From contig CAVXSS010000001.1 of the NCBI GenBank assembly GCA_963764515.1, forward strand, positions 194,677-258,676: a DNA stretch of 64,000 nt, given 5' to 3'. The translations under genes and the position numbers were made by a program. Of the stretch, positions 16,812-57,700 are shown in pieces. Under the pieces are notes generated by a model that worked only from the letters and a program-made list of their open reading frames with translations, ran no database searches and was not told where the DNA came from. Every line of letters starts with the position of its first letter. The first letter of the stretch is position 1. The DNA comes from an uncultured Chloroflexia bacterium. GTDB taxonomy: Bacteria; Chloroflexota; Limnocylindria; Limnocylindrales; CSP1-4.

Positions 16812-17201
16812 CTAGCCCTTGCGGGCCTCGGCCTCGATCTCGATGAGCAAGCTCGGCTCGATGAGGGCGCGCACCTCGACCATCGTGGCGGCGGGTCGCG
16901 TCTCGTCGAAGAACTCGCGATGGACCGCGATGACCTCGCCCGAGCGGGCGATATCGGTCACGAACATCCGGGTCCTGACGACATCGCCGAGACGGAACCC
17001 GGCCGCCTCGAGCGCCGTGGCGATGATCGCAAGGCTGGCACGCGCCTGGCCGGCGATATCCCCCGGGTGCTGCGACCGGCCATCCGGCCCGGCATCGGTC
17101 GTCCCGGCGACCCAGCACGAATCGCCGACCACGACGGCTCGGCTGTAGCCGCCGAGCGTCTCCCACGGCCCTCCCGAGGAGATCCGGCGGCGACCGGTCA
17201 T
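16812..17201 (-). CDS. ridA: RidA/YjgF family reactive-intermediate deaminase
   Basis: 129-aa C-terminal part of the track ORF, with characteristic RTRMFVTDIA and EVRALIEPSLLIEIEAEA blocks. Lies 7 nt downstream of the M20 gene. Confidence 0.8.
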   Translation of the reverse strand: MTGRRRISSGGPWETLGGYSRAVVVGDSCWVAGTTDAGPDGRSQHPGDIAGQARASLAIIATALEAAGFRLGDVVRTRMFVTDIARSGEVIAVHREFFDETRPAATMVEVRALIEPSLLIEIEAEARKG

Positions 17202-17208
17202 GCCGGCC

Positions 17209-18444
17209 CTACCCCGCGTCGGGCGGTGTGTCGCGCCAGGCGACGATGGCCGGGTCGCGACCGATGGCGAGCAGCAGCCCGGCCAGCAGCGATGTCCGCG
17301 GCACGATCGACTCGATCTCGAGGTACTCAGCCGGCGCGTGGTCGCTGCCGCCGATCGGTCCGAGGCCGTCCAGGCTCGGCACGCCCATGCCGGCCGTGGT
17401 GTTCGCGTCGGACGCACCGCCGGTCGCTGCATCGGCGATCGAGAAGCCAAGGCCCTCGGCGACCGCCTTCGCATGCGCGACGAGACGGGCGCTGCGGGCG
17501 AGCTTCTCCATCGGCCACCAGCGCGCCATCGGTTCGAACTCGACGCTGGTGTCCGGCACCACGGTGGTCTCGGCGATGCGGTGGATCTCGGCCTCCGCGG
17601 CCTCCAGCTCGGCGCGGGTCACGCCACGGACGTCCACCTCGAGCGAGCAGCGCTCCGCGACGACGTTCGGTCGCGTGCCGCCGGCGATGACCCCGACGTT
17701 GACCGTGACGCCCGGCCACCGTCCGTTGAGGCCATGCAGGTCGCCGACGATCCGGGCCGCCTCCAGGATGGCGCTCCGACCCTTCTCCGGCTCCACGCCG
17801 GCATGGGCCGCACGCCCGGTGACGGTGATGCGCAGGTCCAGGATGCCCTTGCGCGACGAGACGATGTCGCCGTTCGCGCGGGCGCATTCGAGCACGAGCG
17901 TCGCATCCATGTCTCTGGCGAGCGCGCGGATGTGGGGGGCCGACGTCGGCGAGCCGATCTCCTCGTCGGGGTTCGCCACGAAGACGAGCCGCTCGAAGGG
18001 CAGTCCCCCAAGCTGACCCATCAGGGCCTTGAGCGCATACAGCCCAGCCAGCAGGCCACCCTTCATGTCGGTCACGCCGGGTCCTCGGGCGAGCCCGTCG
18101 GCGATGGCGAACGGCCGGTCGGCGACGGTCCCCGGATCGAACACCGTATCGAGGTGGCCGATCAGCAGGATCCGCGGCGCGCCAGCACGACCGTCGAAGG
18201 TCGCCACCACCGTGTCGCCGAGGCGGCCGGCCGGATCCGGCCGGCGTTCGACAGTCGCGCCGAGACCGACCAGGAACTCGGCCGTCCAGCTCCCGACCTC
18301 GTTGACGCCATCGGGGGTGTAGCTGCCGCAATCGATATTGACGAGGCGCTCGAGGTCGCGCAGGAAGCTCGGGAAATCGGCGGTCACCGCGTCGCGCAGG
18401 GCGTCGAGCTCGGGAGTCTTCGGAACCGCGGTCATGGCATCCAC
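17209..18444 (-). CDS. M20 family metallopeptidase (dipeptidase/deacylase-like)
   Basis: HLDTVF (metal-binding His), GVTDMKGG and NPDEEIGS blocks (Asp/Glu metal ligands). 411 aa. Confidence 0.85.
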   Translation of the reverse strand: MDAMTAVPKTPELDALRDAVTADFPSFLRDLERLVNIDCGSYTPDGVNEVGSWTAEFLVGLGATVERRPDPAGRLGDTVVATFDGRAGAPRILLIGHLDTVFDPGTVADRPFAIADGLARGPGVTDMKGGLLAGLYALKALMGQLGGLPFERLVFVANPDEEIGSPTSAPHIRALARDMDATLVLECARANGDIVSSRKGILDLRITVTGRAAHAGVEPEKGRSAILEAARIVGDLHGLNGRWPGVTVNVGVIAGGTRPNVVAERCSLEVDVRGVTRAELEAAEAEIHRIAETTVVPDTSVEFEPMARWWPMEKLARSARLVAHAKAVAEGLGFSIADAATGGASDANTTAGMGVPSLDGLGPIGGSDHAPAEYLEIESIVPRTSLLAGLLLAIGRDPAIVAWRDTPPDAG

Positions 18445-18531: not shown

Positions 18532-20292
18532 GTGCGACTGATCGAAACCCGCCTCCTCGAGGGACCCAACGTCTACCGGCTAGAACCGGTGGTGAAGCTC
18601 GAAGTCGCGGTCGGCCGACGGCGCACGTGGTACGGGCAACGGGATCCGGCTCGCCACGCGCTCGTCCACCTCGGCGCTCCCGTCCTGTCGCGGGACTGGC
18701 CGGACGGCGTCGCCGCCCTCGTCGCATGGATCCGCCGCTTGCGGGCCGACCACGGCGAGGGACGCCGCGGTCTGGCAGTCCATCGGTCATCCGATCCGGG
18801 ACACTGGATCATCACCTTCCCGTGGGTCGGCGCGGAACGGGCCCAGACCATCACAGACGCCGCACAGGCACTCGCTGGGCGGGACGTGTCCCCGTCGCGG
18901 ACCGCGCGACTCACGGGGAACCAGGAACGCCTGCTGGCCCGTTGGTCGGAGCGGATCCGAGAGGCCCGGACGTCTCCACCCTCGTGGATCCGTGACGTGG
19001 ACCGACGCGTGCCGGTGGTCTCGATCTCCGGCACGAACGGCAAGAGCACCGTGACCCGGCTCATCACCCACATCCTGATCGGAGCCGGACGGCACGTCGG
19101 GACGACGACCTCCGACGGCGTGCTCGTCGACGAGCGCCTCATCGAGCCCGGCGACTGGACGGGGCCTGGCGGCGCCCACCAGATCCTCGCCCGGCGCGAC
19201 ATCGACGTCGCGGTCCTGGAGACGGCCCGTGGCGGCATCGTCCTGCGCGGCGTCGGCTACGAGTCGAACGAGGTGAGCATCCTGACGAACGTGACGTCGG
19301 ACCACCTGGACCTGCAGGGCATCCACACCCTCCCCGAGCTGGCCGAGGTGAAGGCCACGATCGCGCGCATCACGACGCCCGACGGGTGGGTCGTGCTCAA
19401 CGCCGACGACGCGTATGTCGCTGCAGTCGCTCGACGGGTGCGCGGGCGGGTGGCGTTCTTCTCGACCGAGGACGGGTCGGCCGTCGTGCGCCGACACCGC
19501 GCCGCCGGAGGGCGGGCCTACCTGCTCCGACGAGGCTGGCTGGTCGAGGCCGACGGCGACCGAGAGATACCGGTCGTCGAGATCGGTCAGGTACCCATCA
19601 CGATCGGCGGACTGGCGCGCTACAACATCGCCAATGCCCTCGCGGCGGCCGGCGGGGCGCGTGGCCTGGGAGTCTCGATCGAGGGGGTCCGCGACGGTCT
19701 CATCGACTTCCGGCCATCGGCCGAACGATCGCCAGGGCGGCTCAACCTGTACCGGCTGGGCGCCCGGGTCATCATCGTGGACTTCGCCCACAACGAGGCG
19801 GGCGTCGCGGCCATCATGGACGTGGCCGAGGGCATCGCGGCAGGCGCCGCGGGCCGCGCGGCCCCGATCACCGCCATCATCGGCACCGCGGGCGATCGAC
19901 CCGACGACACGCTCCGCGGGATCGGCCGGATCGCCGCCGAACGGGCGCAGCGGGTCGTCATCAAGCAGACCCTCAAATACCTGCGAGGCCGGACGCCCGA
20001 GTCGGTGGTCGGAGAACTGCTCGCCGGTGTCAGTGCCGGTGGCGGACGCGTGGCCGACGTCCCGGTCTACGACTCGGAGACCGCGGCACTGCGGGCCGAG
20101 CTCAACAGCGCGGCGGGGCGCGGTCCGGAAGGTCGCCGGTCCGACGCCCCCAGGGTCATCGTCCTGATGTGCCACGAGGATCGCAGCGGCGTGTACGAGC
20201 TCCTCGCGACCGCTGGGGCACGCCCCGTCGACGTCTCCTCGGAGCTGACCGAGCTCGTGCCCAGGCTCCAGGACCGCCCGCGCCCCGCCTGA
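18532..20292 (+). CDS. Cyanophycin-synthetase-like protein with the CphA N-domain fused directly to a Mur-ligase (M) domain, with no ATP-grasp domain
   Basis: The N-terminus VRLIETRLLEGPNVYRLEPVVKLEV matches the CphA N-domain; compare the bona fide CphA here, LRIIEARVLRGPNYWAREPVIRLLV. The Mur-ligase P-loop VVSISGTNGKSTVT sits at residue ~165, so there is no room for the ~270-aa ATP-grasp domain. The C-terminus is a Mur-ligase fold (LNADDAYV, DFAHNEAG). GTG start at 18532. Confidence 0.75.
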   Translation: MRLIETRLLEGPNVYRLEPVVKLEVAVGRRRTWYGQRDPARHALVHLGAPVLSRDWPDGVAALVAWIRRLRADHGEGRRGLAVHRSSDPGHWIITFPWVGAERAQTITDAAQALAGRDVSPSRTARLTGNQERLLARWSERIREARTSPPSWIRDVDRRVPVVSISGTNGKSTVTRLITHILIGAGRHVGTTTSDGVLVDERLIEPGDWTGPGGAHQILARRDIDVAVLETARGGIVLRGVGYESNEVSILTNVTSDHLDLQGIHTLPELAEVKATIARITTPDGWVVLNADDAYVAAVARRVRGRVAFFSTEDGSAVVRRHRAAGGRAYLLRRGWLVEADGDREIPVVEIGQVPITIGGLARYNIANALAAAGGARGLGVSIEGVRDGLIDFRPSAERSPGRLNLYRLGARVIIVDFAHNEAGVAAIMDVAEGIAAGAAGRAAPITAIIGTAGDRPDDTLRGIGRIAAERAQRVVIKQTLKYLRGRTPESVVGELLAGVSAGGGRVADVPVYDSETAALRAELNSAAGRGPEGRRSDAPRVIVLMCHEDRSGVYELLATAGARPVDVSSELTELVPRLQDRPRPA

Positions 20293-20359
20293 CGAGGCCA
20301 CAGCTGTTCCTGGCTCCCACGGCAAGCTGAAAGGCGGGACCGATGGGCCGTGCAGGACC

Positions 20360-21079
20360 CTAGGCCGGTCGGGGCCACCAGGCGCGGACATCGAGGCGAG
20401 CCGCGAAGCGCAGGTGCGGCGGCTCGTCGGGGAGCGTGAGGCCGTGGCTTTCGGCCATCGTATCGCGCCCGATGCGCGCGGCGGCCGGCTGGAGTGGCCA
20501 CGGCTTGTGTCGGATCTCCGTCCGCAGCAGGCGGCCCTCCTCGTCGAGCGCGAACAGCCGTTGTCGATCGGTGAGGAACGCCTCGAGTGAGCCCGGTGCG
20601 GCGGGCTCGACCGGCCCGGTGGCCCGGTACCGGGCCTCGAAGCGGGCCGGCGGACCGCGTCGGTCGATCCGGATCGATCGATAATCCACGACCTCGCGCA
20701 CCCGCCCGACCGACATCGACGCCTCGAAGTACGGCAGGTGGAACGACGCCCGCGCTCCCTCGACGGCGGCGCGGCTGCCCGCGTCCAGGCTGAGGAACCA
20801 GACGCCGGCGCGACCCTCGTGCCGGACGTACGTCCGGACGTTCAGCTCCGGGAAGGCACCGGCGATCGGTGGCGCCGGCAGGCCCCGCGGCGCGACGTCC
20901 TCCATCCGGAACGGCACGACGCCGAGGTAGGCGCGACCGTCGAAGAGGTCCAGCTCGAGACCAGCGGGGACCAGTGCCCGCAGGACATCCGATTCGACCG
21001 GCCAATGCGCGAACAGCAGGTCCACCCACCGCATGCGCATCACCCACGGGCGGGGCCCGAGATCCGGCCGACCCGTCAT
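20360..21079 (-). CDS. DUF2071 family protein
   Basis: WVDLLFAHWPV and LNVRTYVRHEGRAGVWFLSLD blocks, typical of the YqjF/DUF2071 family. Confidence 0.6.
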   Translation of the reverse strand: MTGRPDLGPRPWVMRMRWVDLLFAHWPVESDVLRALVPAGLELDLFDGRAYLGVVPFRMEDVAPRGLPAPPIAGAFPELNVRTYVRHEGRAGVWFLSLDAGSRAAVEGARASFHLPYFEASMSVGRVREVVDYRSIRIDRRGPPARFEARYRATGPVEPAAPGSLEAFLTDRQRLFALDEEGRLLRTEIRHKPWPLQPAAARIGRDTMAESHGLTLPDEPPHLRFAARLDVRAWWPRPA

Positions 21080-21223
21080 GCCGCGAACACCGACGGCACC
21101 AGCCCGCACCCGAACGCGCTACTCATCGGTAGCACGATACACCGACCGGTCGTCGACCGCTTCGCCGGACGCCGCCGGGCGGCCGCCCCGAGGATGCTCT
21201 CCCCGCGCCAGGGTTCGTGCGCG

Positions 21224-24124
21224 TCAGCCCTCGGGGGCCTCGAGCTCGCCTGGATCCGCGAAGGCGGTCCCGCCGCGGGACGTCCCGGCGGCGGCCAGGG
21301 CCTCCCGGTAGACGCCGATCGCATCGTCCACGCAGCAGACGACGAGGTCGCCCGGGATCGCCCGCCGCAGGGCGGCACGCACGGCGGACATCTCGTCGAG
21401 CACTCTCTCGGCGCGCGTGGTTCGTGAGCCCTCCTCGCCCTTCGTCTGACGCACGCCCTCGAGGACGTTCGCGGCGGTCTCGCCGGCGGCCCGGCCGCGG
21501 AGATTCTTGTCCTCGCGGACGATGATCTCGTCGAACGCGGTCGCGGCGACCGCCCCGTAGGCCTTCTGGTCCTCGTCCCGGCGATCGCCCGGGATCCCCA
21601 GGACGCCGATGGCCCGGCCGCTCCGTGTTCCGGAGCCGGACGTCCGGAGGCGCCCCGCTTTGGAGACCGACTCGGTCATCATGCGCTCGACGAAGTCGGC
21701 GAGTTGGCGCATGCCGTCGACGTTGTGGCAGTAGTCGATGACGACCCGAATGCCGCCGACGTCGAGCAGGTTGAGTCGGCCCGGAGCCTGGAAGAATGAG
21801 GTCGTGAAGGTCCGCAGGCCCTGGCGGATGTCGTGGAGATGCGCCCCGGCGGCCCATGCCGCGGCGGCCGCGGCCAGGGCGTTCGCGACGTTCATCCGGG
21901 CCCGGCCGCCGAACGTCGCCGGGATCAGGTGCGTATACAGCACGGGCATCGTGCGCGGCCCGAGCCGAAGGACGATGAGTTCGCCCTCCGCCGAGGGCTC
22001 GAGGCAGAACGCCGCACCGCCGCGTCCGGCGTGCCCGTCGACGCGATCGAATCCGTCCTCGCCCTTCGTCGTCGACATGCTGAACAGGACCACCCTGCCA
22101 GCGCAGTGGCGGCCCATCCGGTAGACGTGGCTGTCGTCGGCGTTGAGGACTGCGGTCCCCGACCGCGGCACGGCCTCGACGACGACACCCTTGACGTTGG
22201 CGAGCTGTCCGATGGTGGCGATGCCGCCGAGCCCCAGATGGTCGCCGGTCACGTTGGTCACCACGGCCACGTCGTTGCGGTCGTAGCCGAGGCCCTCGCG
22301 CAGGATGCCGCCGCGCGCGACCTCGAAGACGGCCGTGTCCACGGTCGGGTTCTGGAGGACGATCTGGGCCGACTTCGGGCCCGACATGTCGCCCTTCTTG
22401 ACGAGCCGGTTGTCGACGACGATGCCGTCGGTCGAGGTCATCCCGACCCGCCGACCCATCAACTTGAGGATGTGCGAGATCATCCGGACCGTCGTCGTCT
22501 TCCCGTTCGTGCCGGTCACCGCGACGATCGGGATCCGGGCCGACGAGCCGGGCGGAAAGAGCGAATCGATCACCGGGCGAGCGACGTACTGCGGCTCGCC
22601 CTCGGTCGGGTTGGTGTGCATCCGGAAGCCGGGCGCGGCGTTGACCTCGACGATCGCGCCGCCGGTCTCGCGCACGGGCGTGGCGATGTCGGGGCAGATG
22701 AAGTCGATGCCGGCCACGTCGAGGCCGACGATCCGGGCCGCCGTCTCGGCGATCTCGACGTTGTCGGGGTGCGCCTCGATGGTCCGGTCGATCGACGTCC
22801 CGCCCGTCGACATGTTGCCGGTCAGGGCGAGCTTGATCCACGTTCCTGCGGGCGGGACGGCGTCGAGCTCGAAGCCCTGCGACCGGACGAGCGCCTCGGC
22901 CGCCGCGTCGACCTTGATCCGCGTGAGGACCCTCTCGTGGCCGATCCCACGCCGAGGATCCGCGTTCGCGAAATCGACGAGCTGTCGCACCGAGTGCTCG
23001 CCGTCCCCGGTGACCGACGCGGGGACGCGCTCCGCGATGGCGGCCATCGTGCCCGCGATGACCAGGCAGCGGTAGTCGTTGCCGACCACGTAGGTCTCGA
23101 CGACCAGGTCGCCGGAACGGCTCTCGGCCATAGCGCCGTGGTAGGCGGCGCGCACGGCCTCCTCCGAACGAAGGTCCAGGTGGACGCCCCGGCCGTGGTT
23201 GCCATCGAGCGGCTTCACCACGCACGGGAAGCCAAGGCGCAACGCGGCTGCGACCGTCTCGTCCTCGGTCGAGACGACCGCGGAGCGCGGCACCGGCAGG
23301 CCGGCCGAGTCGAGGAGGCGGTTGGTCAGGCTCTTGTCCGAGGCGATGTCCACGCCGATCGCCGAGGTCCGCGACGTCATCGTCGCGCGGATCCGCTGCT
23401 GGTGGACGCCATGTCCGAACTGGACCAGGGAATGGGGGTCGAGGCGGATGAACGGGATGTCGCGGCTGATGGCCTCGTCGATCAGCGCCTGCGTGGACGG
23501 CCCGAACGCCTGGCGTTCAGCGAGCCGGATGAGCCGCTCGAGCTCGGGCGCGAAGTCGAAGAAGACCGCGGGGTCGTCCGGCGCCACGAGGTGGTTGATC
23601 AGGCCCACGGCCATCTTCCCCGCCTCGAGGCCGACCTGCTCCTCGCGGTACTCGAAGATGCAGTTGTACTGGCCGGTCGGGCCGGCCGATCGGGTCTTCC
23701 CGTGGCGGACGTCGGTGCCGGCGAGGTTCTGGAATTCCAGGGCGACGTGTTCGGCGATGTGGCCGGCCCAGGTCCCGTCCCGAAGCCGGCTGACGAAGCC
23801 GCCCCGACGGCCCAGCGAGCAGGCGTGGTCCTCGAGCGTCGGGAGGAGCGCGATCAAGGCGTCATTGAAGCCGGGGAGCTTGTTCGATGGGTACTGCTCG
23901 AGGACGCCAAGGTCCACCAGCAGGCGGATGACCGGCTCGCGCGCCCAATAGTTCGGCCCCCGCAGCACCCGGGCTTCGATGATCCGAAGCGTCGGAGCCG
24001 GGGCCCCCGCGACGACGGGCACGCGGGCCTTGGCCGCGCGAGAGCCGCCGCGCTTGGGGCGGGACGCGGATGCGGTCTGGGCCACGGATACCTCCTCGGT
24101 CGCCGGCTTCGGGTGACGGTGCAT
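21224..24124 (-). CDS. cphA: Cyanophycin synthetase
   Basis: Full three-domain architecture. N-domain: RIIEARVLRGPNYW. ATP-grasp: HGRGVHLDLRSEE, GNDYRCLVIAG. Mur ligase: IVAVTGTNGKTTTVRMISHIL, LNADDSHV, DYCHNVDG. The start is either ATG at 24124 or a GTG at 24085, which has a GGAGG RBS. Confidence 0.9.
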   Translation of the reverse strand: MHRHPKPATEEVSVAQTASASRPKRGGSRAAKARVPVVAGAPAPTLRIIEARVLRGPNYWAREPVIRLLVDLGVLEQYPSNKLPGFNDALIALLPTLEDHACSLGRRGGFVSRLRDGTWAGHIAEHVALEFQNLAGTDVRHGKTRSAGPTGQYNCIFEYREEQVGLEAGKMAVGLINHLVAPDDPAVFFDFAPELERLIRLAERQAFGPSTQALIDEAISRDIPFIRLDPHSLVQFGHGVHQQRIRATMTSRTSAIGVDIASDKSLTNRLLDSAGLPVPRSAVVSTEDETVAAALRLGFPCVVKPLDGNHGRGVHLDLRSEEAVRAAYHGAMAESRSGDLVVETYVVGNDYRCLVIAGTMAAIAERVPASVTGDGEHSVRQLVDFANADPRRGIGHERVLTRIKVDAAAEALVRSQGFELDAVPPAGTWIKLALTGNMSTGGTSIDRTIEAHPDNVEIAETAARIVGLDVAGIDFICPDIATPVRETGGAIVEVNAAPGFRMHTNPTEGEPQYVARPVIDSLFPPGSSARIPIVAVTGTNGKTTTVRMISHILKLMGRRVGMTSTDGIVVDNRLVKKGDMSGPKSAQIVLQNPTVDTAVFEVARGGILREGLGYDRNDVAVVTNVTGDHLGLGGIATIGQLANVKGVVVEAVPRSGTAVLNADDSHVYRMGRHCAGRVVLFSMSTTKGEDGFDRVDGHAGRGGAAFCLEPSAEGELIVLRLGPRTMPVLYTHLIPATFGGRARMNVANALAAAAAAWAAGAHLHDIRQGLRTFTTSFFQAPGRLNLLDVGGIRVVIDYCHNVDGMRQLADFVERMMTESVSKAGRLRTSGSGTRSGRAIGVLGIPGDRRDEDQKAYGAVAATAFDEIIVREDKNLRGRAAGETAANVLEGVRQTKGEEGSRTTRAERVLDEMSAVRAALRRAIPGDLVVCCVDDAIGVYREALAAAGTSRGGTAFADPGELEAPEG

Positions 24125-24140
24125 GGCCGCCGGGGCGCGA

Positions 24141-24986
24141 CTAGCTCGACGCGGCCTCGGCGCCGGGCAGGGCATGGAGCGTCGGTGCCGTCAGACGTTC
24201 TCGATGGCGCAGGTCGAAGCGATAGCCTGATGGCAGCGAATGGAGCACGACGCCGCTGATCATCAACGGCCGATGGCCGCGGACCTCCCAGGCATCGGTC
24301 TCGGATTGCGAGCCGTCGACCACGGTGATCGAACCACGCCCGATGACCTCGAGGATGCCATCGGGCCCGACCACGCCGGCGGTGTCCTCGTCGACGCCAA
24401 GACCCAGCAGGGAGGGGTTCTGGGCGATCAGGCTGAGCAGCCTGCCCAGCCGGTTCCGCTGCTGGAAATGCTGATCGATGATGACGCCCGGCAGGACGCC
24501 GAGGCCCGCCGAGATCTGGGCCATGCGGTGTTTGGGGGTGGCCCCGGACGCACCGAACGCGATCATGTGGCTCGACATCGCCGATGCGCCCGCGGACGTG
24601 CCGGCGACCACGGCCCCGTGCCGGAAGCGCTCCAGGATCGCGTCGGCCAGGCGCGTGCCGCCGATGGTCGATGAGAGGCGCAGCTGGTTGCCACCGGTCA
24701 GGAAGATGCCGGTCGCTTCGCGGATCGCGAGGGTCGAGACCTCGTCGTTGGCCTGGCTACGCGTGACCGCGTGGAGCGCGATGACCCGGGTGACGCCCAG
24801 GTCGCCGAAGACCTGCTTGTACCGCTCCCCCGCCTCGAGCCCCAGCGAGGACGCGGTGGAGATCACCGCGATCGTGGCGTCCACCCCGCCGGCGAGCGCG
24901 ACGAAGCGACTGAGGATGACCCGGTCCCGGACCTTGTCCTCCGCGCCGCCGATGATGATCACGGTTCCTTCGGTCACGAGCCCCAC
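24141..24986 (-). CDS. cphB: Cyanophycinase (peptidase S51)
   Basis: VIIIGGAEDK N-terminus and GTSAGASAMSSHMI (catalytic Ser in GxSAG), ~280 aa. Lies immediately upstream of cphA on the same strand, the classic cphBA operon. Confidence 0.85.
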   Translation of the reverse strand: MGLVTEGTVIIIGGAEDKVRDRVILSRFVALAGGVDATIAVISTASSLGLEAGERYKQVFGDLGVTRVIALHAVTRSQANDEVSTLAIREATGIFLTGGNQLRLSSTIGGTRLADAILERFRHGAVVAGTSAGASAMSSHMIAFGASGATPKHRMAQISAGLGVLPGVIIDQHFQQRNRLGRLLSLIAQNPSLLGLGVDEDTAGVVGPDGILEVIGRGSITVVDGSQSETDAWEVRGHRPLMISGVVLHSLPSGYRFDLRHRERLTAPTLHALPGAEAASS

Positions 24987-52828: not shown

Positions 52829-53362
52829 CTACGTCGAGGCGTCGCGGAGCGCCTCCGCCCGGAGCTTGGCCAGGTACGCCGAGGCACCCTTGTAGTTCGG
52901 CCACGTGACGTCGTGCTCGTACGGCGATGACGCCTCGGAGAGTCGGTGACTGCCAGGTGCAATGGCTCGACCACCAGCAGCAGCCCGCAGTCGCCGGTCG
53001 AAGGTCATGAGGGATCCCTCAACCGCGTCAGCAAGGGCCAGGTACATCGCGTCGTACGAGGTCAAGGAGTGCCGCTCGGCAAAGTCGATCGCCGACAGCA
53101 GCAACGCTCGATCCAACTCGACCGTTTCGAGCTCCATCTCGTCGAGGTCGCGCAGCGCCCGAACGACCTCGGAGGTGGGCCAACGATGACGCCGGATCAG
53201 CGAATTCACGACCTCGAGCCAGAAGTGCGACGGGGTGACGATCCGGCGACGCTCGCGAGTCCATCTGTCAACTGCAATCGCGGCGGCAGATCCTTCGGAC
53301 TCATCGCGAACGATCGAGACCGCCACGGAGGCGTCGATGACGATCGCGGGCAACTCATTCAT
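52829..53362 (-). CDS. vapC: PIN-domain toxin of a type II TA pair (VapC-like) with a C-terminal extension
   Basis: AIVIDASVAVSIV (first PIN acidic residue) ... LTSYDAMYLALA. The ATG overlaps the antitoxin stop (ATGAATGA). Confidence 0.75.
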   Translation of the reverse strand: MNELPAIVIDASVAVSIVRDESEGSAAAIAVDRWTRERRRIVTPSHFWLEVVNSLIRRHRWPTSEVVRALRDLDEMELETVELDRALLLSAIDFAERHSLTSYDAMYLALADAVEGSLMTFDRRLRAAAGGRAIAPGSHRLSEASSPYEHDVTWPNYKGASAYLAKLRAEALRDAST

Positions 53363-54949: not shown

Positions 54950-57700
54950 GGGTGACCTGACAACCGGAGATCGTCCTCCCATCGAAGGGACACGCTAGTC
55001 GGAGACCCTGCGGTCAAGGGCACAACGACTTCCAGATTGGAACGGTCGGTCGTGAGATCGAGAGTGCCGATCGGATCGATCTCTTGTGTGCGTTCGTACG
55101 GTTCGCAGGGCTTCGGCTGATCCGACCGCAGGTACAAGATTTCCTCCTCCGTGCTGACCAAATCCGGCCAACGCAGCGACCGGCCTAAGGAGCGCCGAGC
55201 CCTCGACGACCCTCAGGCCATGGAACCAAGGTCAGGACCCGTAAGACTCGCAAACACGACTGTACGCGGAGGCCTGGCTCTTTCATCGCGATTCCGGCTA
55301 CCACACCGCATATGTCGGGTCATCGAACCTCACCCATTCGGCCCTGCTAGACGGCCTCGAATGGAACATTCGCAACGGCCATCGACGACGCGTCGCGTCA
55401 TCGCATCCGCGACTTCGAGCAGTACTGGAATGAACCGGAATTCGAGTCATACGACCCTCGTGTCGACGGAGAGCGCCTGGAGCAGGCCCTCAACCAGCAG
55501 AAGGGCATGACGCTCGCACCCGAGGCGTTCAACATCTCAATCGAGTTTGGGCCCAAGCCGTTTCAGCAAGAAATGCTCGAGGCGCTCGCGGCCGAGCGAC
55601 AGCGTGGCCACATGCGAAACCTCGTTGTCGCGCCAACTGGAACCGGGAAGACCTGGGTATCCGCCTTCGACTACAAGCGCCTGCGGAGCGAGGGATTGGA
55701 CCGCCTGCTCTTCGTGGCTCACAGAGACGAGATCCTGCAGCAGAGCCAACAGGTCTTCAGGTATGTCCTCGACGACATGTCATTCGGCGAACGTCACGTG
55801 GGAGTCGAACGACCGGCAATCGGCGATCATGTCTTCGCTTCGATTCAGTCGTCATCGACCTCATACGCCCGAGGTCGGTACGACCTCGTAGTCATCGATG
55901 AGTTCATCACGCCGAGTTGACCAGACGTGCCCGAATCTCCAGGATCTGTCGACCACAGGTCTTGCTAACTAGGCGACCCCGGATACGCGCCGGATGACAG
56001 CACATTCGTTGACGGTTCGACAACCGGATCGCTTGCGACATGCGACTGTGGCAGGCGCTGGATCAGGGCCTGCTCTCGCCGTTCCACTATTTCGGCGTTC
56101 ACGACGGTACCGATCTACGCGGCGTTGCTTTCGAGCGTGGGCGGTACGCCCCCGGCGAGCTCGAGGGCATCTCACCGGAGACCAGTCCGCGCTCGTCGAA
56201 GTCTCGATTCCGCCCAGGAATGGGTGCTGGACGGAACGAAGATTCGGGAACTCGGGTTGTGCGCCGGGGTCGCGCACGCCCAATTCATGGCCGACCAATT
56301 CAACCAAGCGGGCTTGCCTGCAGTCGCGCTGCATGGTGGTTCGCCTCGTGACGTCCGCGTCAATGCCGTTAGGCAGCTTCGAAGAGGCGAACTGCGAGCC
56401 ATCTTCACGGTCGACATCTTCAACGAAGGTATCGACATCCCGGAGGTCGATACGATCCTCCTACTCCGACCCACGGAGAGCGCGACCATATTTCTTCAGC
56501 AGCTAGGCCGGGGTCTGCGCTGGGCCGAAGGCAAGACCGTGCTGACGGTCCTCGACTTCATCGGTCAGTCCAACGCCAAGTATCGGTTTGATCTCCGGTA
56601 CCGCGCGATCATGGGCGGGACCCGCCAGCAGCTGCGACGAATGATCGAAAGTGGCCTCCCACAGGGGCCGCCCGGTTCCGCGGTGCGATTAGACGTGATC
56701 GCCCAGGAAATCGTCCTCGAGAACGTCCGGAGCAGCCTGCGACTCAGTCGGCGGGAGCTTGTCGACGATCTGCGTGGGATGCCTGCTAACACGACGCTGG
56801 GCGAGTTCCTGGCAGCAAGCGAACACGAACTCAGTGACGTCTACTCGAGCCCAGGCCAGACCTTCATGTCGCTGCGACGGGCTGCCGGGCATGTCCGCGG
56901 ACCCGCCGATCCAATGGAACAGGACGGGTCGAAGGCGTTGGCGCGGATCCTCCATGTGGACGACGAGGAGCGATACGCGCATTGGACGCGATTCCTCAAC
57001 GGTGGTCCGATTGATACGGACATTGCCAGCCGCGAAGGGCGCCTCAACCTGATGCTCTTCGCCGCGTTGGGACATTGGAAACGGCCCGTGACTGATCTCG
57101 CGACCACCTTGGACGCGTTCCGCGAGAATCCGGCCCTCCGGGATGAGCTCGGCCAGCTGTAGAGGTCTGCGGGACCTAACCGCTCGGAGACTCGCCCGGT
57201 CAAGCGCCTCGGGGCCGGTTCCGTTGCACAGCCACGCTACGTATGGCCTTTACGAGTTGATCGCTGGTTACGGCATGATCAGCAAGGAGCGGCTCCGAGC
57301 GAATCGTGAGGGATTGGCCTGGGTCCCGGAACAGCAGACTGACCTGTTCTTCGTGACCCTGAACAAGTCGGATGACGACTACTCGCCAACGACCAGGTAT
57401 CAGGACTATCCGATCTCCCCAACTTGATCCAGTCGAGGCGGACACGGCGTCGTCGCCCACTGGTCGGCGCTACATCAATCATGTCGCACTTGGGTCGAAG
57501 ATCGTCCTCTGCGTTCGCGAGAACCGGAAAGATGGGCGTGGTGAGTCGGCGCCCTACGTCTGTCTCGGACCCGCCAGATTGGTTCGACACGAGTCGGAGA
57601 AGCCGATTAGATCGTTTGGGAACTCGAACGGCCAATGCCAATCGAGATGTTCCAGTCAGCGAAGGTGGCCGCCGGCTGAGCTCGGCAAGTGTACCAGGCC
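54950..57700 (+). pseudogene. Decayed gene for a PLD-like nuclease / SF2 helicase / DUF3427 protein, broken by multiple frameshifts and stops
   Basis: Pieces lie in three frames. PLD/HKD fragment: IDLLCAFVRFAGLR ... AWLFHRDSGYHTAYVGSSNLTHSALLDGLEWNIRN. Helicase motif I: NLVVAPTGTGKTW, then DEF at 55900. Motifs V-VI: TVDIFNEGIDIPEVDTILLLRPTESATIFLQQLGRGLR. DUF3427-like tail: YSPTTRYQDYPISPT / RRYINHVALGSKIVLCVRE...PYVCLGPARLVRHE. Confidence 0.65.

Follow-up and report, generated by a model that had tools for sequence, protein, structure and literature searches.

Genes and features of the locus

The window (the whole stretch of DNA analysed, 64,000 nucleotides from an uncultured Chloroflexia bacterium) carries a gene for a 586-aa protein in the vicinity of cphA1 and cphB. 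This protein consists of an N domain and an M domain, and is referred to below as the N+M protein. The relevant features are the following.

16812..17201, minus strand: RidA (Pfam and NCBIfam), paired with the M20 peptidase gene and divergent from the N+M gene
17209..18444, minus strand: M20 peptidase (Pfam and NCBIfam), paired with the RidA gene and divergent from the N+M gene
18532..20292, plus strand: N+M gene, a CphA paralogue lacking the G domain, 586 aa (open reading frame with GTG start; independent gene call)
18532..19002, plus strand: N domain, residues 1-157 (CphA N-domain fold, R7-x-L9-x-G11-P12-N13 loop; no Cx19HxxEH motif)
19024..19653, plus strand: Mur_ligase_M core, residues 165-374 (Pfam; P-loop K171/S172, S194, E230, D257-H258, K274)
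19735..20115, plus strand: Mur_ligase_C (Mlid), residues 402-528 (Pfam and conservation; motifs H420-N421, G454-D-R456 and R485-G-R487)
20360..21109, minus strand: DUF2071 gene between the N+M gene and cphA1 (Pfam, 249 bits)
21224..24175 (longest open reading frame), minus strand: cphA1, full cyanophycin synthetase 1 with N, G and M domains (TIGR02068, Pfam architecture, motif, gene call)
24141..24986, minus strand: cphB, cyanophycinase, Peptidase_S51 (TIGR02069, 262.6 bits, cutoff 126.6; Pfam)

The cphB-cphA operon that an earlier note had described on the minus strand was confirmed, as both genes score above the cutoffs of their families (1118 bits against a cutoff of 850 for cphA1 and TIGR02068). 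The called start of cphA1 at 24085 yields a protein of 953 aa (21224..24085), in which the Cx19HxxEH motif is intact. An independent gene call on the source contig gave an identical 586-aa product for the N+M gene. The gene is convergent with cphA1, 932 bp from it and outside the cphBA operon; its opposite-strand position about 1 kb away had been given correctly, but the intervening DUF2071 gene had not been mentioned. Promoter/terminator, Rfam and tRNA scans found nothing.

The 586-aa protein has an N domain and a full M domain but no G domain

The earlier note had proposed that a CphA N domain is followed after only about 165 residues by a Mur-ligase P-loop, with no room for an ATP-grasp domain. 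The P-loop (G167-T168-N169-G170-K171-S-T) is where it was said to be. In the full-length predicted model, which is compact and confident (pLDDT 90.4, pTM 0.91), the N fold and the P-loop are no more than about 40 residues apart. Neither Pfam nor NCBIfam gave an ATP-grasp match in the protein, and when the CphA1 G domain was compared by tblastn with all six frames of the window, only cphA1 was found, the next match (E 0.23) lying elsewhere; a G domain hidden by a frameshift was thus not found. The protein is a CphA paralogue composed of an N domain and a full M domain, without the ATP-grasp G domain. In CphA1 the G domain (about 325 residues) adds Asp to the backbone, therefore backbone extension by the N+M protein is impossible.

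Profile-profile comparison matched the N domain to the CphA N domain with a probability of 97.6%, and in a fold search the isolated N domain had its best matches in CphA2 and CphA1. Although remote, the homology of the domain to the CphA N domain is real, and the possibility that the N terminus is unrelated to CphA was ruled out by these two comparisons. It is diverged: the Pfam profile PF18921 left the N domain unmatched in 35 of 35 aligned family members, and no HxxEH was found in the N part of any of the 35. Its sole strongly conserved motif is formed by L9, G11, P12 and N13. The equivalent loop of SuCphA1, with Y14 and I17, contacts the M domain (PMC9262961).

Against TIGR02068 the N+M protein scores 382.4 bits, which is below the cutoff of 850, and the match covers profile positions 476-838 only. 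The M part is 37% identical to the M domain of the local CphA1 (E 1e-68), and the best matches in a PDB sequence search were all CphA1 (E 1e-75 to 1e-58). These comparisons bear on the alternative that the protein is an ordinary cell-wall or folate ligase of the Mur family (MurE, MurF, MurT, FolC or PgsB) which lies near cphA by chance. With the MurE model the score was 102.7 bits, far below the 382 bits obtained with TIGR02068 and also below the model's own cutoff of 373; the scores for FolC (38, cutoff 162.65), MurT (29.7, cutoff 800) and PgsB (28.9, cutoff 222.7) fell similarly short. Mur ligases (MurC-F, especially MurE), FolC, MurT and PgsB have a different N-terminal domain and a different genomic context, whereas the N terminus of the N+M protein has the CphA N fold, its M domain matches CphA1 better than Mur ligases by 40-60 orders of magnitude, and linkage to cphA1 is conserved across phyla (see below). 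A plain Mur-type ligase, which the earlier note had named among the outcomes that would refute its proposal, is therefore very improbable, and judged by its sequence the M domain is of the CphA type and not of the Mur type.

Catalytic residues are conserved

Residues of the Mur_ligase_M core were mapped on SuCphA1 and TeCphA1 by ungapped alignments, complemented by column conservation. K171, S172, S194 and E230 correspond to K499, T500, T522 and E558 of TeCphA1, which are ATP/Mg and catalytic residues (PMC9427784). D257-H258 corresponds to D585-H586 of SuCphA1, a pair that cannot be mutated without loss of M-domain activity (PMC9262961). Across 35-68 divergent sequences, all the ATP/Mg and catalytic residues show little or no variation. 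CphA1 M domains have 69 columns with a conservation of 90% or more, and 48 of them hold the same residue in both N+M subfamilies (defined below).

Such conservation is unexpected in a purely structural protein, and it speaks against the idea that the N+M protein is a non-enzymatic scaffold or regulator whose N and Mcore surfaces link CphA1 oligomers or granules. The idea has some appeal, since Mcore and the N domain take part in the oligomer contacts of CphA1 (PMC9427784), a C-terminal TPR_5 domain, suggestive of protein-protein binding, is fused to some actinobacterial members, and CphA2 shows that a domain can be retained for structure alone (PMC10273328). Nevertheless, we regard a scaffold as quite unlikely.

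A few residues that are invariant in CphA1 are changed in the N+M protein (L238, T480, R279). The D of the CphA1 'ED..RGR' motif is replaced by T480, located within a 'YLRGR' motif, and in subfamily A a CphA1 arginine is replaced by L238. S603 and E607 of SuCphA1 correspond to A275 and R279 in the window protein. These changes at CphA1-conserved positions (L238, T480, A275, R279) suggest that the specificity for the acceptor or the donor may differ.

Comparison with CphA1 and CphA2

The N+M protein shares with CphA1 (TIGR02068; 7LG5, 7WAC, 7LGM) a homologous N domain with the same GPN docking loop, a complete M domain (core and lid) with the same P-loop, Mg ligands and D-H pair, and most of the CphA1-specific conserved M-domain columns; moreover, the two are encoded side by side. 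Apart from the missing G domain, it differs in having an N domain unrecognised by PF18921, in an M domain that belongs to a separate old clade, and in lacking the Cx19HxxEH peptidase motif of the CphA1 N domain. This last feature is not strictly defining, because it is present in 83% of CphA1s.

CphA2 (7TA5), which had been cited as the known truncated form, does retain N and G domains, its M domain being truncated and inactive (PMC10273328). The N+M protein is its converse: the G domain is absent, and the N domain is combined with a full M domain that, judged by its residues, appears to be active. CphA2 comes from cyanobacteria and polymerises beta-Asp-Arg dipeptides, whereas the N+M family occurs in Chloroflexota, Actinomycetota, Gammaproteobacteria, Myxococcota, Planctomycetota and Acidobacteriota.

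N+M proteins form an old family under purifying selection

Close homologues of the window protein are 580-597 aa long and 78-95% identical to it, and more distant full-length matches are 33-45% identical. Subfamily A was delimited by a length of 530-600 aa, an N-terminal R-x-L-x-G-P-N loop and a CphA-type M domain beginning after about 150-180 residues; the window protein has all of these features and belongs to clade A, as seen in the alignment of 35 sequences and in the M-domain tree. Members of subfamily A come from Chloroflexota and Actinomycetota, those of subfamily B from Lysobacterales and other phyla. That N+M proteins make up a large, old, multi-phylum family and not a local oddity had been overlooked earlier.

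Proteins of this architecture and length are found in hundreds of clusters and in several phyla, dN/dS values of 0.12-0.27 indicate purifying selection on both halves, and in the M-domain tree the N+M proteins (530-600 aa) fall into clades apart from all CphA1 M domains. The N+M lineages are old and distinct from CphA1 M domains. Together with the absence of G-like sequence from every frame of the window outside cphA1, these observations effectively refute both a decaying cphA duplicate now without its G domain and a G domain concealed by an assembly error or a frameshift, for which nothing speaks except the unusual architecture itself.

Proteins of the DUF4938 type (PF16292), from Herpetosiphonaceae and other Chloroflexota, have the same N+M architecture and are about 570 aa long. 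One of them, P0236, joins the base of the window's subfamily in the M-domain tree; it is the only one of the 35 aligned members matched by PF16292, which gave no match to the window protein at E up to 0.1. In the literature searched, a single paper on DUF4938 was found, in which knockout of a Pseudomonas protein so labelled had no effect on the secretion phenotype tested (PMC13592688). Neither the N+M architecture nor its function was described anywhere in that literature (searches included CphA3, G-less, Mur ligase family protein and DUF4938). Databases label N+M proteins "cyanophycin synthetase", "UDP-N-acetylmuramyl tripeptide synthase" or "Mur ligase family protein".

Linkage to cyanophycin genes

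Within subfamily A, cphA1 lies at a distance of 8 kb or less in 13 of 15 loci centred on the N+M gene (L001-L006, L010, L015, L017, L020, L024, L044 and L046), usually together with cphB. Of the other two, L007 is uninformative on linkage, as its contig ends just past the gene, and in L009 cphA1 is absent from the 3.4 kb upstream and the 8 kb downstream that were available. In subfamily B the N+M gene lies directly downstream of cphB-cphA1 in the same orientation, 9 bp from it (L084, L086, L087), and the order cphB-cphA1-N+M is also found in Plesiocystis, in Luteimonas and in MAGs of Planctomycetaceae, Acidobacteriota and Steroidobacteraceae. For Kribbella, L044 and Terrabacter the tree of the N+M proteins is congruent with that of the adjacent cphA1. 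The DUF4938-type lineage had neither cphA1 nor cphB within 8 kb on either side in two genomes; this lineage and L009 show that the wider superfamily is not strictly tied to cyanophycin clusters.

Other neighbours are less constant. The M20-ridA pair, which had been suggested to handle dipeptide products, is shared by the Limnocylindria/Chloroflexia loci L001-L004 alone; none of the actinobacterial or subfamily-B loci has it. The known families of cyanophycin dipeptidases are IadA, IaaA and CphZ, and M20 is not among them (PMC10206079, PMC9974463), so that the suggestion is weak. The DUF2071 gene is confined to L001-L003, and L004 is among the loci without it. As their conservation is confined to Limnocylindria/Chloroflexia loci, M20/RidA and DUF2071 were rejected as components of the system. 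In Actinomycetota a fabG/inhA-like SDR pair lies upstream of the N+M gene, which looks like housekeeping synteny.

Possible function of the N+M protein

The intact catalytic residues and the linkage to cphA1 and cphB fit an enzyme that would ligate an amino acid to cyanophycin or to another acceptor. The reading that we favour, with moderate confidence, is that the N+M protein would be a stand-alone M-type ligase adding side chains, most probably Arg, in trans to the cyanophycin of the neighbouring CphA1. The N domain would dock on the Mur-ligase core through the conserved GPN loop, and the two would form a platform holding the cyanophycin chain. The M domain would bind ATP-Mg and phosphorylate the free beta-carboxylate of a backbone Asp, to which an amino acid, most probably Arg, would then be ligated. 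Acting in trans on chains made by CphA1, the enzyme could complete or repair side chains or accelerate the M step. From the evidence given above we infer cyanophycin as the acceptor, Arg as the donor and this physiological role; it points specifically neither to capping nor to Lys as the donor, both of which had been raised before.

Why a second M activity should be present is not obvious, because the M domains of the adjacent CphA1s are all intact. The position of the window's gene, convergent with the cphBA operon, also counts against the favoured reading, as do the changed residues and the relatives that have no cphA1 nearby. That the N+M protein makes up for an inactive M domain in the neighbouring CphA1 was considered and rejected: in the CphA1s sampled, neighbours included, the P-loop K, the E and the D-H pair are 100% conserved. 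N+M proteins might represent a distinct class of cyanophycin-tailoring enzymes, which fill un-arginylated Asp inside the chains or install a residue other than Arg; this proposal is rather doubtful. CphA1 may be unable to fill internal Asp residues, since the unmodified Asp residues observed in its M domain have all been C-terminal.

An active ligase could also serve an acceptor other than the polymer. With free Asp or short beta-Asp peptides as acceptors of Arg, it might make primers or dipeptides for CphA1; alternatively, it might act on an unrelated carboxylate and merely be co-regulated with nitrogen storage. The intact catalytic residues agree with this, as do the changes (A275, R279) at residues which in CphA1 hold the polymer at the N-domain site and the DUF4938-type relatives that are not clustered with cphA1. 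A priming helper would also fit subfamily B, where six of the seven adjacent CphA1s lack the primer-generating Cx19HxxEH motif. However, the CphA1s beside subfamily A, that of the window included, keep the primer-making motif, which argues that help with priming is not generally needed, and retention of the N domain, which binds polymer in CphA1, is hard to explain for a small-molecule substrate. We consider a non-polymer acceptor unlikely, and continue to prefer side-chain addition to cyanophycin.

Implications

Cyanophycin is a nitrogen-storage polymer whose synthesis is ascribed to a single enzyme, CphA1. To our knowledge, CphA2, with its N and G domains, is the only reduced relative of CphA1 that has been described. 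The conserved N+M counterpart, which by its catalytic residues is apparently active and which in several phyla is encoded within cphA1-cphB clusters or next to them, implies that cyanophycin metabolism includes a step not recognised so far, for which side-chain completion, repair, altered composition and priming are candidates. Because N+M genes carry misleading labels, genome surveys can miscount cyanophycin producers. The N+M protein would offer a naturally isolated M domain for mechanistic work and, possibly, a tool for producing tailored cyanophycins. If the tailoring interpretation is true, the composition and solubility of the polymer would be set by two enzymes in Chloroflexota, Actinomycetota and Lysobacterales.

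Gene content of the locus

The gene for the 586-aa protein, a CphA paralogue with N and M but no G domain (N+M protein), and its neighbors are arranged as follows:

16812..17201, minus strand: RidA gene, paired with the M20 peptidase gene and divergent from the N+M gene
17209..18444, minus strand: M20 peptidase gene, divergent from the N+M gene across a gap of about 90 bp
18532..20292, plus strand: N+M gene (GTG start, 586 codons); the gene call of the source contig, made independently, gives an identical product
20360..21109, minus strand: DUF2071 gene (acetoacetate-decarboxylase-like), located between both ligase genes
21224..24175, minus strand: cphA1, longest ORF (called as 953 aa); TIGR02068, 1118 bits, cutoff 850
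24141..24986, minus strand: cphB; TIGR02069, 262.6 bits, cutoff 126.6

The cphA1 gene specifies the full architecture (Cyanophycin_syn, ATP-grasp, Mur_ligase_M and Mur_ligase_C). Its start is uncertain: the longest ORF overlaps cphB by 35 nt (24141..24175) and includes a 60-residue Arg/Pro-rich leader, and the source-contig gene call opens 30 codons downstream. The GC content of the window is high (~0.70), and the nearest relatives of its proteins are labeled Candidatus Limnocylindrales or Chloroflexota. Between positions 53000 and 58000 GC drops from ~0.71 to 0.62, several ORFs are without any Pfam match, and Helicase_C is the sole Pfam match of ORF 56125..57162; this segment is possibly an island of foreign or mobile DNA.

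Among the loci compared, M20, RidA and DUF2071 were confined to Chloroflexota. The DUF2071 gene is kept in the Limnocylindria loci (L001-L003); tblastn gave no sign of it in the other loci. The proposal of the earlier note that the M20-RidA pair handles dipeptide products found no support beyond lineage-specific synteny, as only Chloroflexota loci have the pair.

The 586-aa protein is a CphA paralogue without ATP-grasp domain

In the 586-aa protein Mur_ligase_M was found at residues 165-374 and Mur_ligase_C at 402-528. TIGR02068 matched with its M-domain part only (profile positions 476-838, 382 bits), and the best MurE model scored 103 bits. The top PDB sequence matches were all CphA1 M domains (E 9e-75 to 5e-58), and the M part is 37% identical to the M domain of the local CphA1. 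No ATP-grasp domain was found in the protein with either profile library, and the CphA1 G domain, searched against all frames of the window, had no match outside cphA1. These results confirm the earlier description of the protein as a CphA paralogue lacking ATP-grasp, and revealed neither a G domain hidden by a frameshift nor a plain Mur- or FolC-like ligase with an unrelated N-terminus; that the protein is an ordinary Mur or FolC ligase is very improbable. The predicted full-length model is compact and of high confidence (pLDDT 90.4, pTM 0.91); in it the P-loop follows the N fold after ~40 residues.

With no G domain and 382 bits against the cutoff of 850, the protein falls outside the CphA1 family. 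CphA2, the described reduced form, consists of N, G and a truncated, inactive M domain (PMC10273328), whereas the N+M family has the converse architecture. Assignment to CphA2 or to any curated Mur-family model was rejected (NCBIfam scores below cutoffs, G absent). NCBI names such proteins "Mur ligase family protein" or, in one lineage, "DUF4938 domain-containing protein"; JGI uses "cyanophycin synthetase" or "UDP-N-acetylmuramyl tripeptide synthase".

Tandem cphA pairs were observed in betaproteobacterial loci L045, L060, L061, L064, L067, L069, L071 (Nitrosomonas europaea), L076 and L083. The first cphA aligns to the window CphA1 up to about residue 700-750, in the middle of the M domain. 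We interpret this as the arrangement with two cphA genes already described for Betaproteobacteria, a reduction different in kind from that of the N+M family.

Family spread and selection

Relatives number in the thousands (4603 at E < 1e-10 among the scored candidates), and many 530-600 aa proteins among the 50%-identity cluster representatives align end to end with 33-45% identity. A neighbor-joining tree of 68 M domains resolved three groups: all CphA1 M domains; subfamily A, comprising the window protein and Actinomycetota and Chloroflexota members; and subfamily B, whose members start with S-R-R-L-T-G-P-N and have a longer linker. This separation indicates that the N+M proteins are old lineages rather than recent deletions of neighboring cphA1 genes. 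The CphA1s adjoining N+M genes belong to a single CphA1 subclade, and the branching orders of N+M and CphA1 agree for Kribbella, L044 (an Actinomycetota MAG) and Terrabacter.

Compared with three orthologues (66-81% identical), the gene has dN/dS values of 0.12-0.21 for its N part and 0.17-0.27 for its M part. Judged from such substitution ratios, selection is maintaining both halves; the chance that the gene is a remnant or artefact appears negligible.

Linkage to cphA1 and cphB

A pattern scan that covered a single genome from each GTDB species, and a subsequent tblastn search with the window proteins, led to the subfamily-A loci. The scan yielded Kribbella (L005, L024), Terrabacter (L015, L017), Nocardioides (L007) and MAGs of Sphaerobacteraceae (L009), Chloroflexia (L004) and Actinomycetota (L006, L010, L020, L044, L046). 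With the Limnocylindria loci L001-L003 included, cphA1 lies within 8 kb in 13 of 15 loci, mostly accompanied by cphB and mostly in opposite orientation. The L007 contig stops shortly beyond the N+M gene; in L009 no cphA1 was found in the 3.4 kb upstream and 8 kb downstream. In Actinomycetota the N+M gene is directly downstream of a fabG/inhA-like short-chain dehydrogenase pair (L005, L010, L015, L024, L044; Pfam-annotated in L024, matched by gene size and position in the others), which is probably housekeeping synteny and not a functional link.

Linkage is tighter in subfamily B. Three Lysobacterales contigs (L084, L086, L087), retrieved via the N+M protein itself, have the order amidohydrolase (IadA-like)-cphB-cphA1-N+M on a single strand; cphA1 and the N+M gene are 9 bp apart. 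The gene is also near cphB-cphA1 in Plesiocystis pacifica, Luteimonas lutimaris and four MAG groups (Planctomycetaceae, Acidobacteriota, Steroidobacteraceae, Gammaproteobacteria). In this second set of loci it is on the strand of cphB-cphA1 except in L080; the set is biased towards linkage, because the search started from cphA1. The third, DUF4938-type (Pfam) lineage occurs in Herpetosiphonaceae and other Chloroflexota; on two long contigs of Herpetosiphonaceae-like Chloroflexota (genes L088:8001-9704 and L089:8001-9707) neither cphA1 nor cphB was present within 8 kb.

Active site and N domain

The window protein aligns without gaps to SuCphA1 (7LG5) and TeCphA1 (7WAC) over residues 158-361, with an offset of +328. 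K171, S172, S194 and E230 correspond to TeCphA1 K499, T500, T522 and E558, the P-loop lysine and Mg ligands (PMC9427784), and D257-H258 to SuCphA1 D585-H586, whose double mutation serves to kill the M domain (PMC9262961). CphA1 M domains have 69 columns with conservation of 90% or more; at 48 of these both N+M subfamilies have the same residue, including all of the residues above and K274, R403, H420-N421, G454-D-R456 and R485-G-R487. A CphA1-invariant Arg is replaced by Leu238 in subfamily A; in the window protein T480 replaces the Asp of the CphA1 'ED..RGR' stretch and belongs to a 'YLRGR' motif specific to the family, and A275 and R279 occupy the positions of SuCphA1 S603 and E607, two residues that help the peptidase site of the N domain to retain cyanophycin (PMC9262961). 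Though small in number, these differences may matter.

[quoted passage not shown] The G-P-N loop is the single N-domain motif common to CphA1 and the N+M family; its SuCphA1 counterpart is a hydrophobic loop (Y14, I17) touching the M domain (PMC9262961). L015:7911-10187 (Terrabacter sp. BE26) and L020:7809-10238 encode N+M proteins with a C-terminal TPR_5 (PF12688) extension (758 and 809 aa, respectively, by longest ORF), suggestive of a function in protein-protein interaction. The Terrabacter fusions hint at a non-catalytic partner, but the invariance of the catalytic residues speaks against such a role, which we regard as quite improbable.

The Cx19HxxEH metallopeptidase motif is absent from the N domain of all 35 N+M members. 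It is retained in all CphA1s beside subfamily-A genes (window, L005, L006, L015, L020, L024, L044), and is missing from six of seven beside subfamily-B genes (L051, L066, L077, L079, L080, L081; present in L054). This absence may bear on a priming role in subfamily B. An active ligase with a different acceptor (for instance free Asp or short peptides, as in priming) gains some support from these neighboring CphA1s mostly lacking the primer-making motif; as a general explanation it seems rather unlikely.

Proposed function

The best-supported reading, in which we have moderate confidence, is a self-contained, active M module working on the cyanophycin of the neighboring CphA1. The retained N domain would be a docking partner and polymer platform. 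The M domain, predicted to be an active ATP-dependent ligase, would form an acyl-phosphate on the Asp beta-carboxylate, to be attacked by an amino acid, most probably Arg. Such a protein would be unable to extend the backbone, and, because the genes are linked, its acceptor would most probably be cyanophycin made by the adjacent CphA1. Possible roles for a second M beside the intact M domain of CphA1 are side-chain completion or repair, use of a different donor, or kinetic help.

A full-text literature search that reached a minority of the subscription journals, so that an earlier description may exist, returned no paper on a G-domain-less CphA, and a term search of a bioinformatic survey of cyanophycin genes (PMC10206079) gave nothing on one. 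The N+M family is genuine and conserved; it represents an apparently undescribed variation on an enzyme of known kind, and it offers a clear, testable functional hypothesis.
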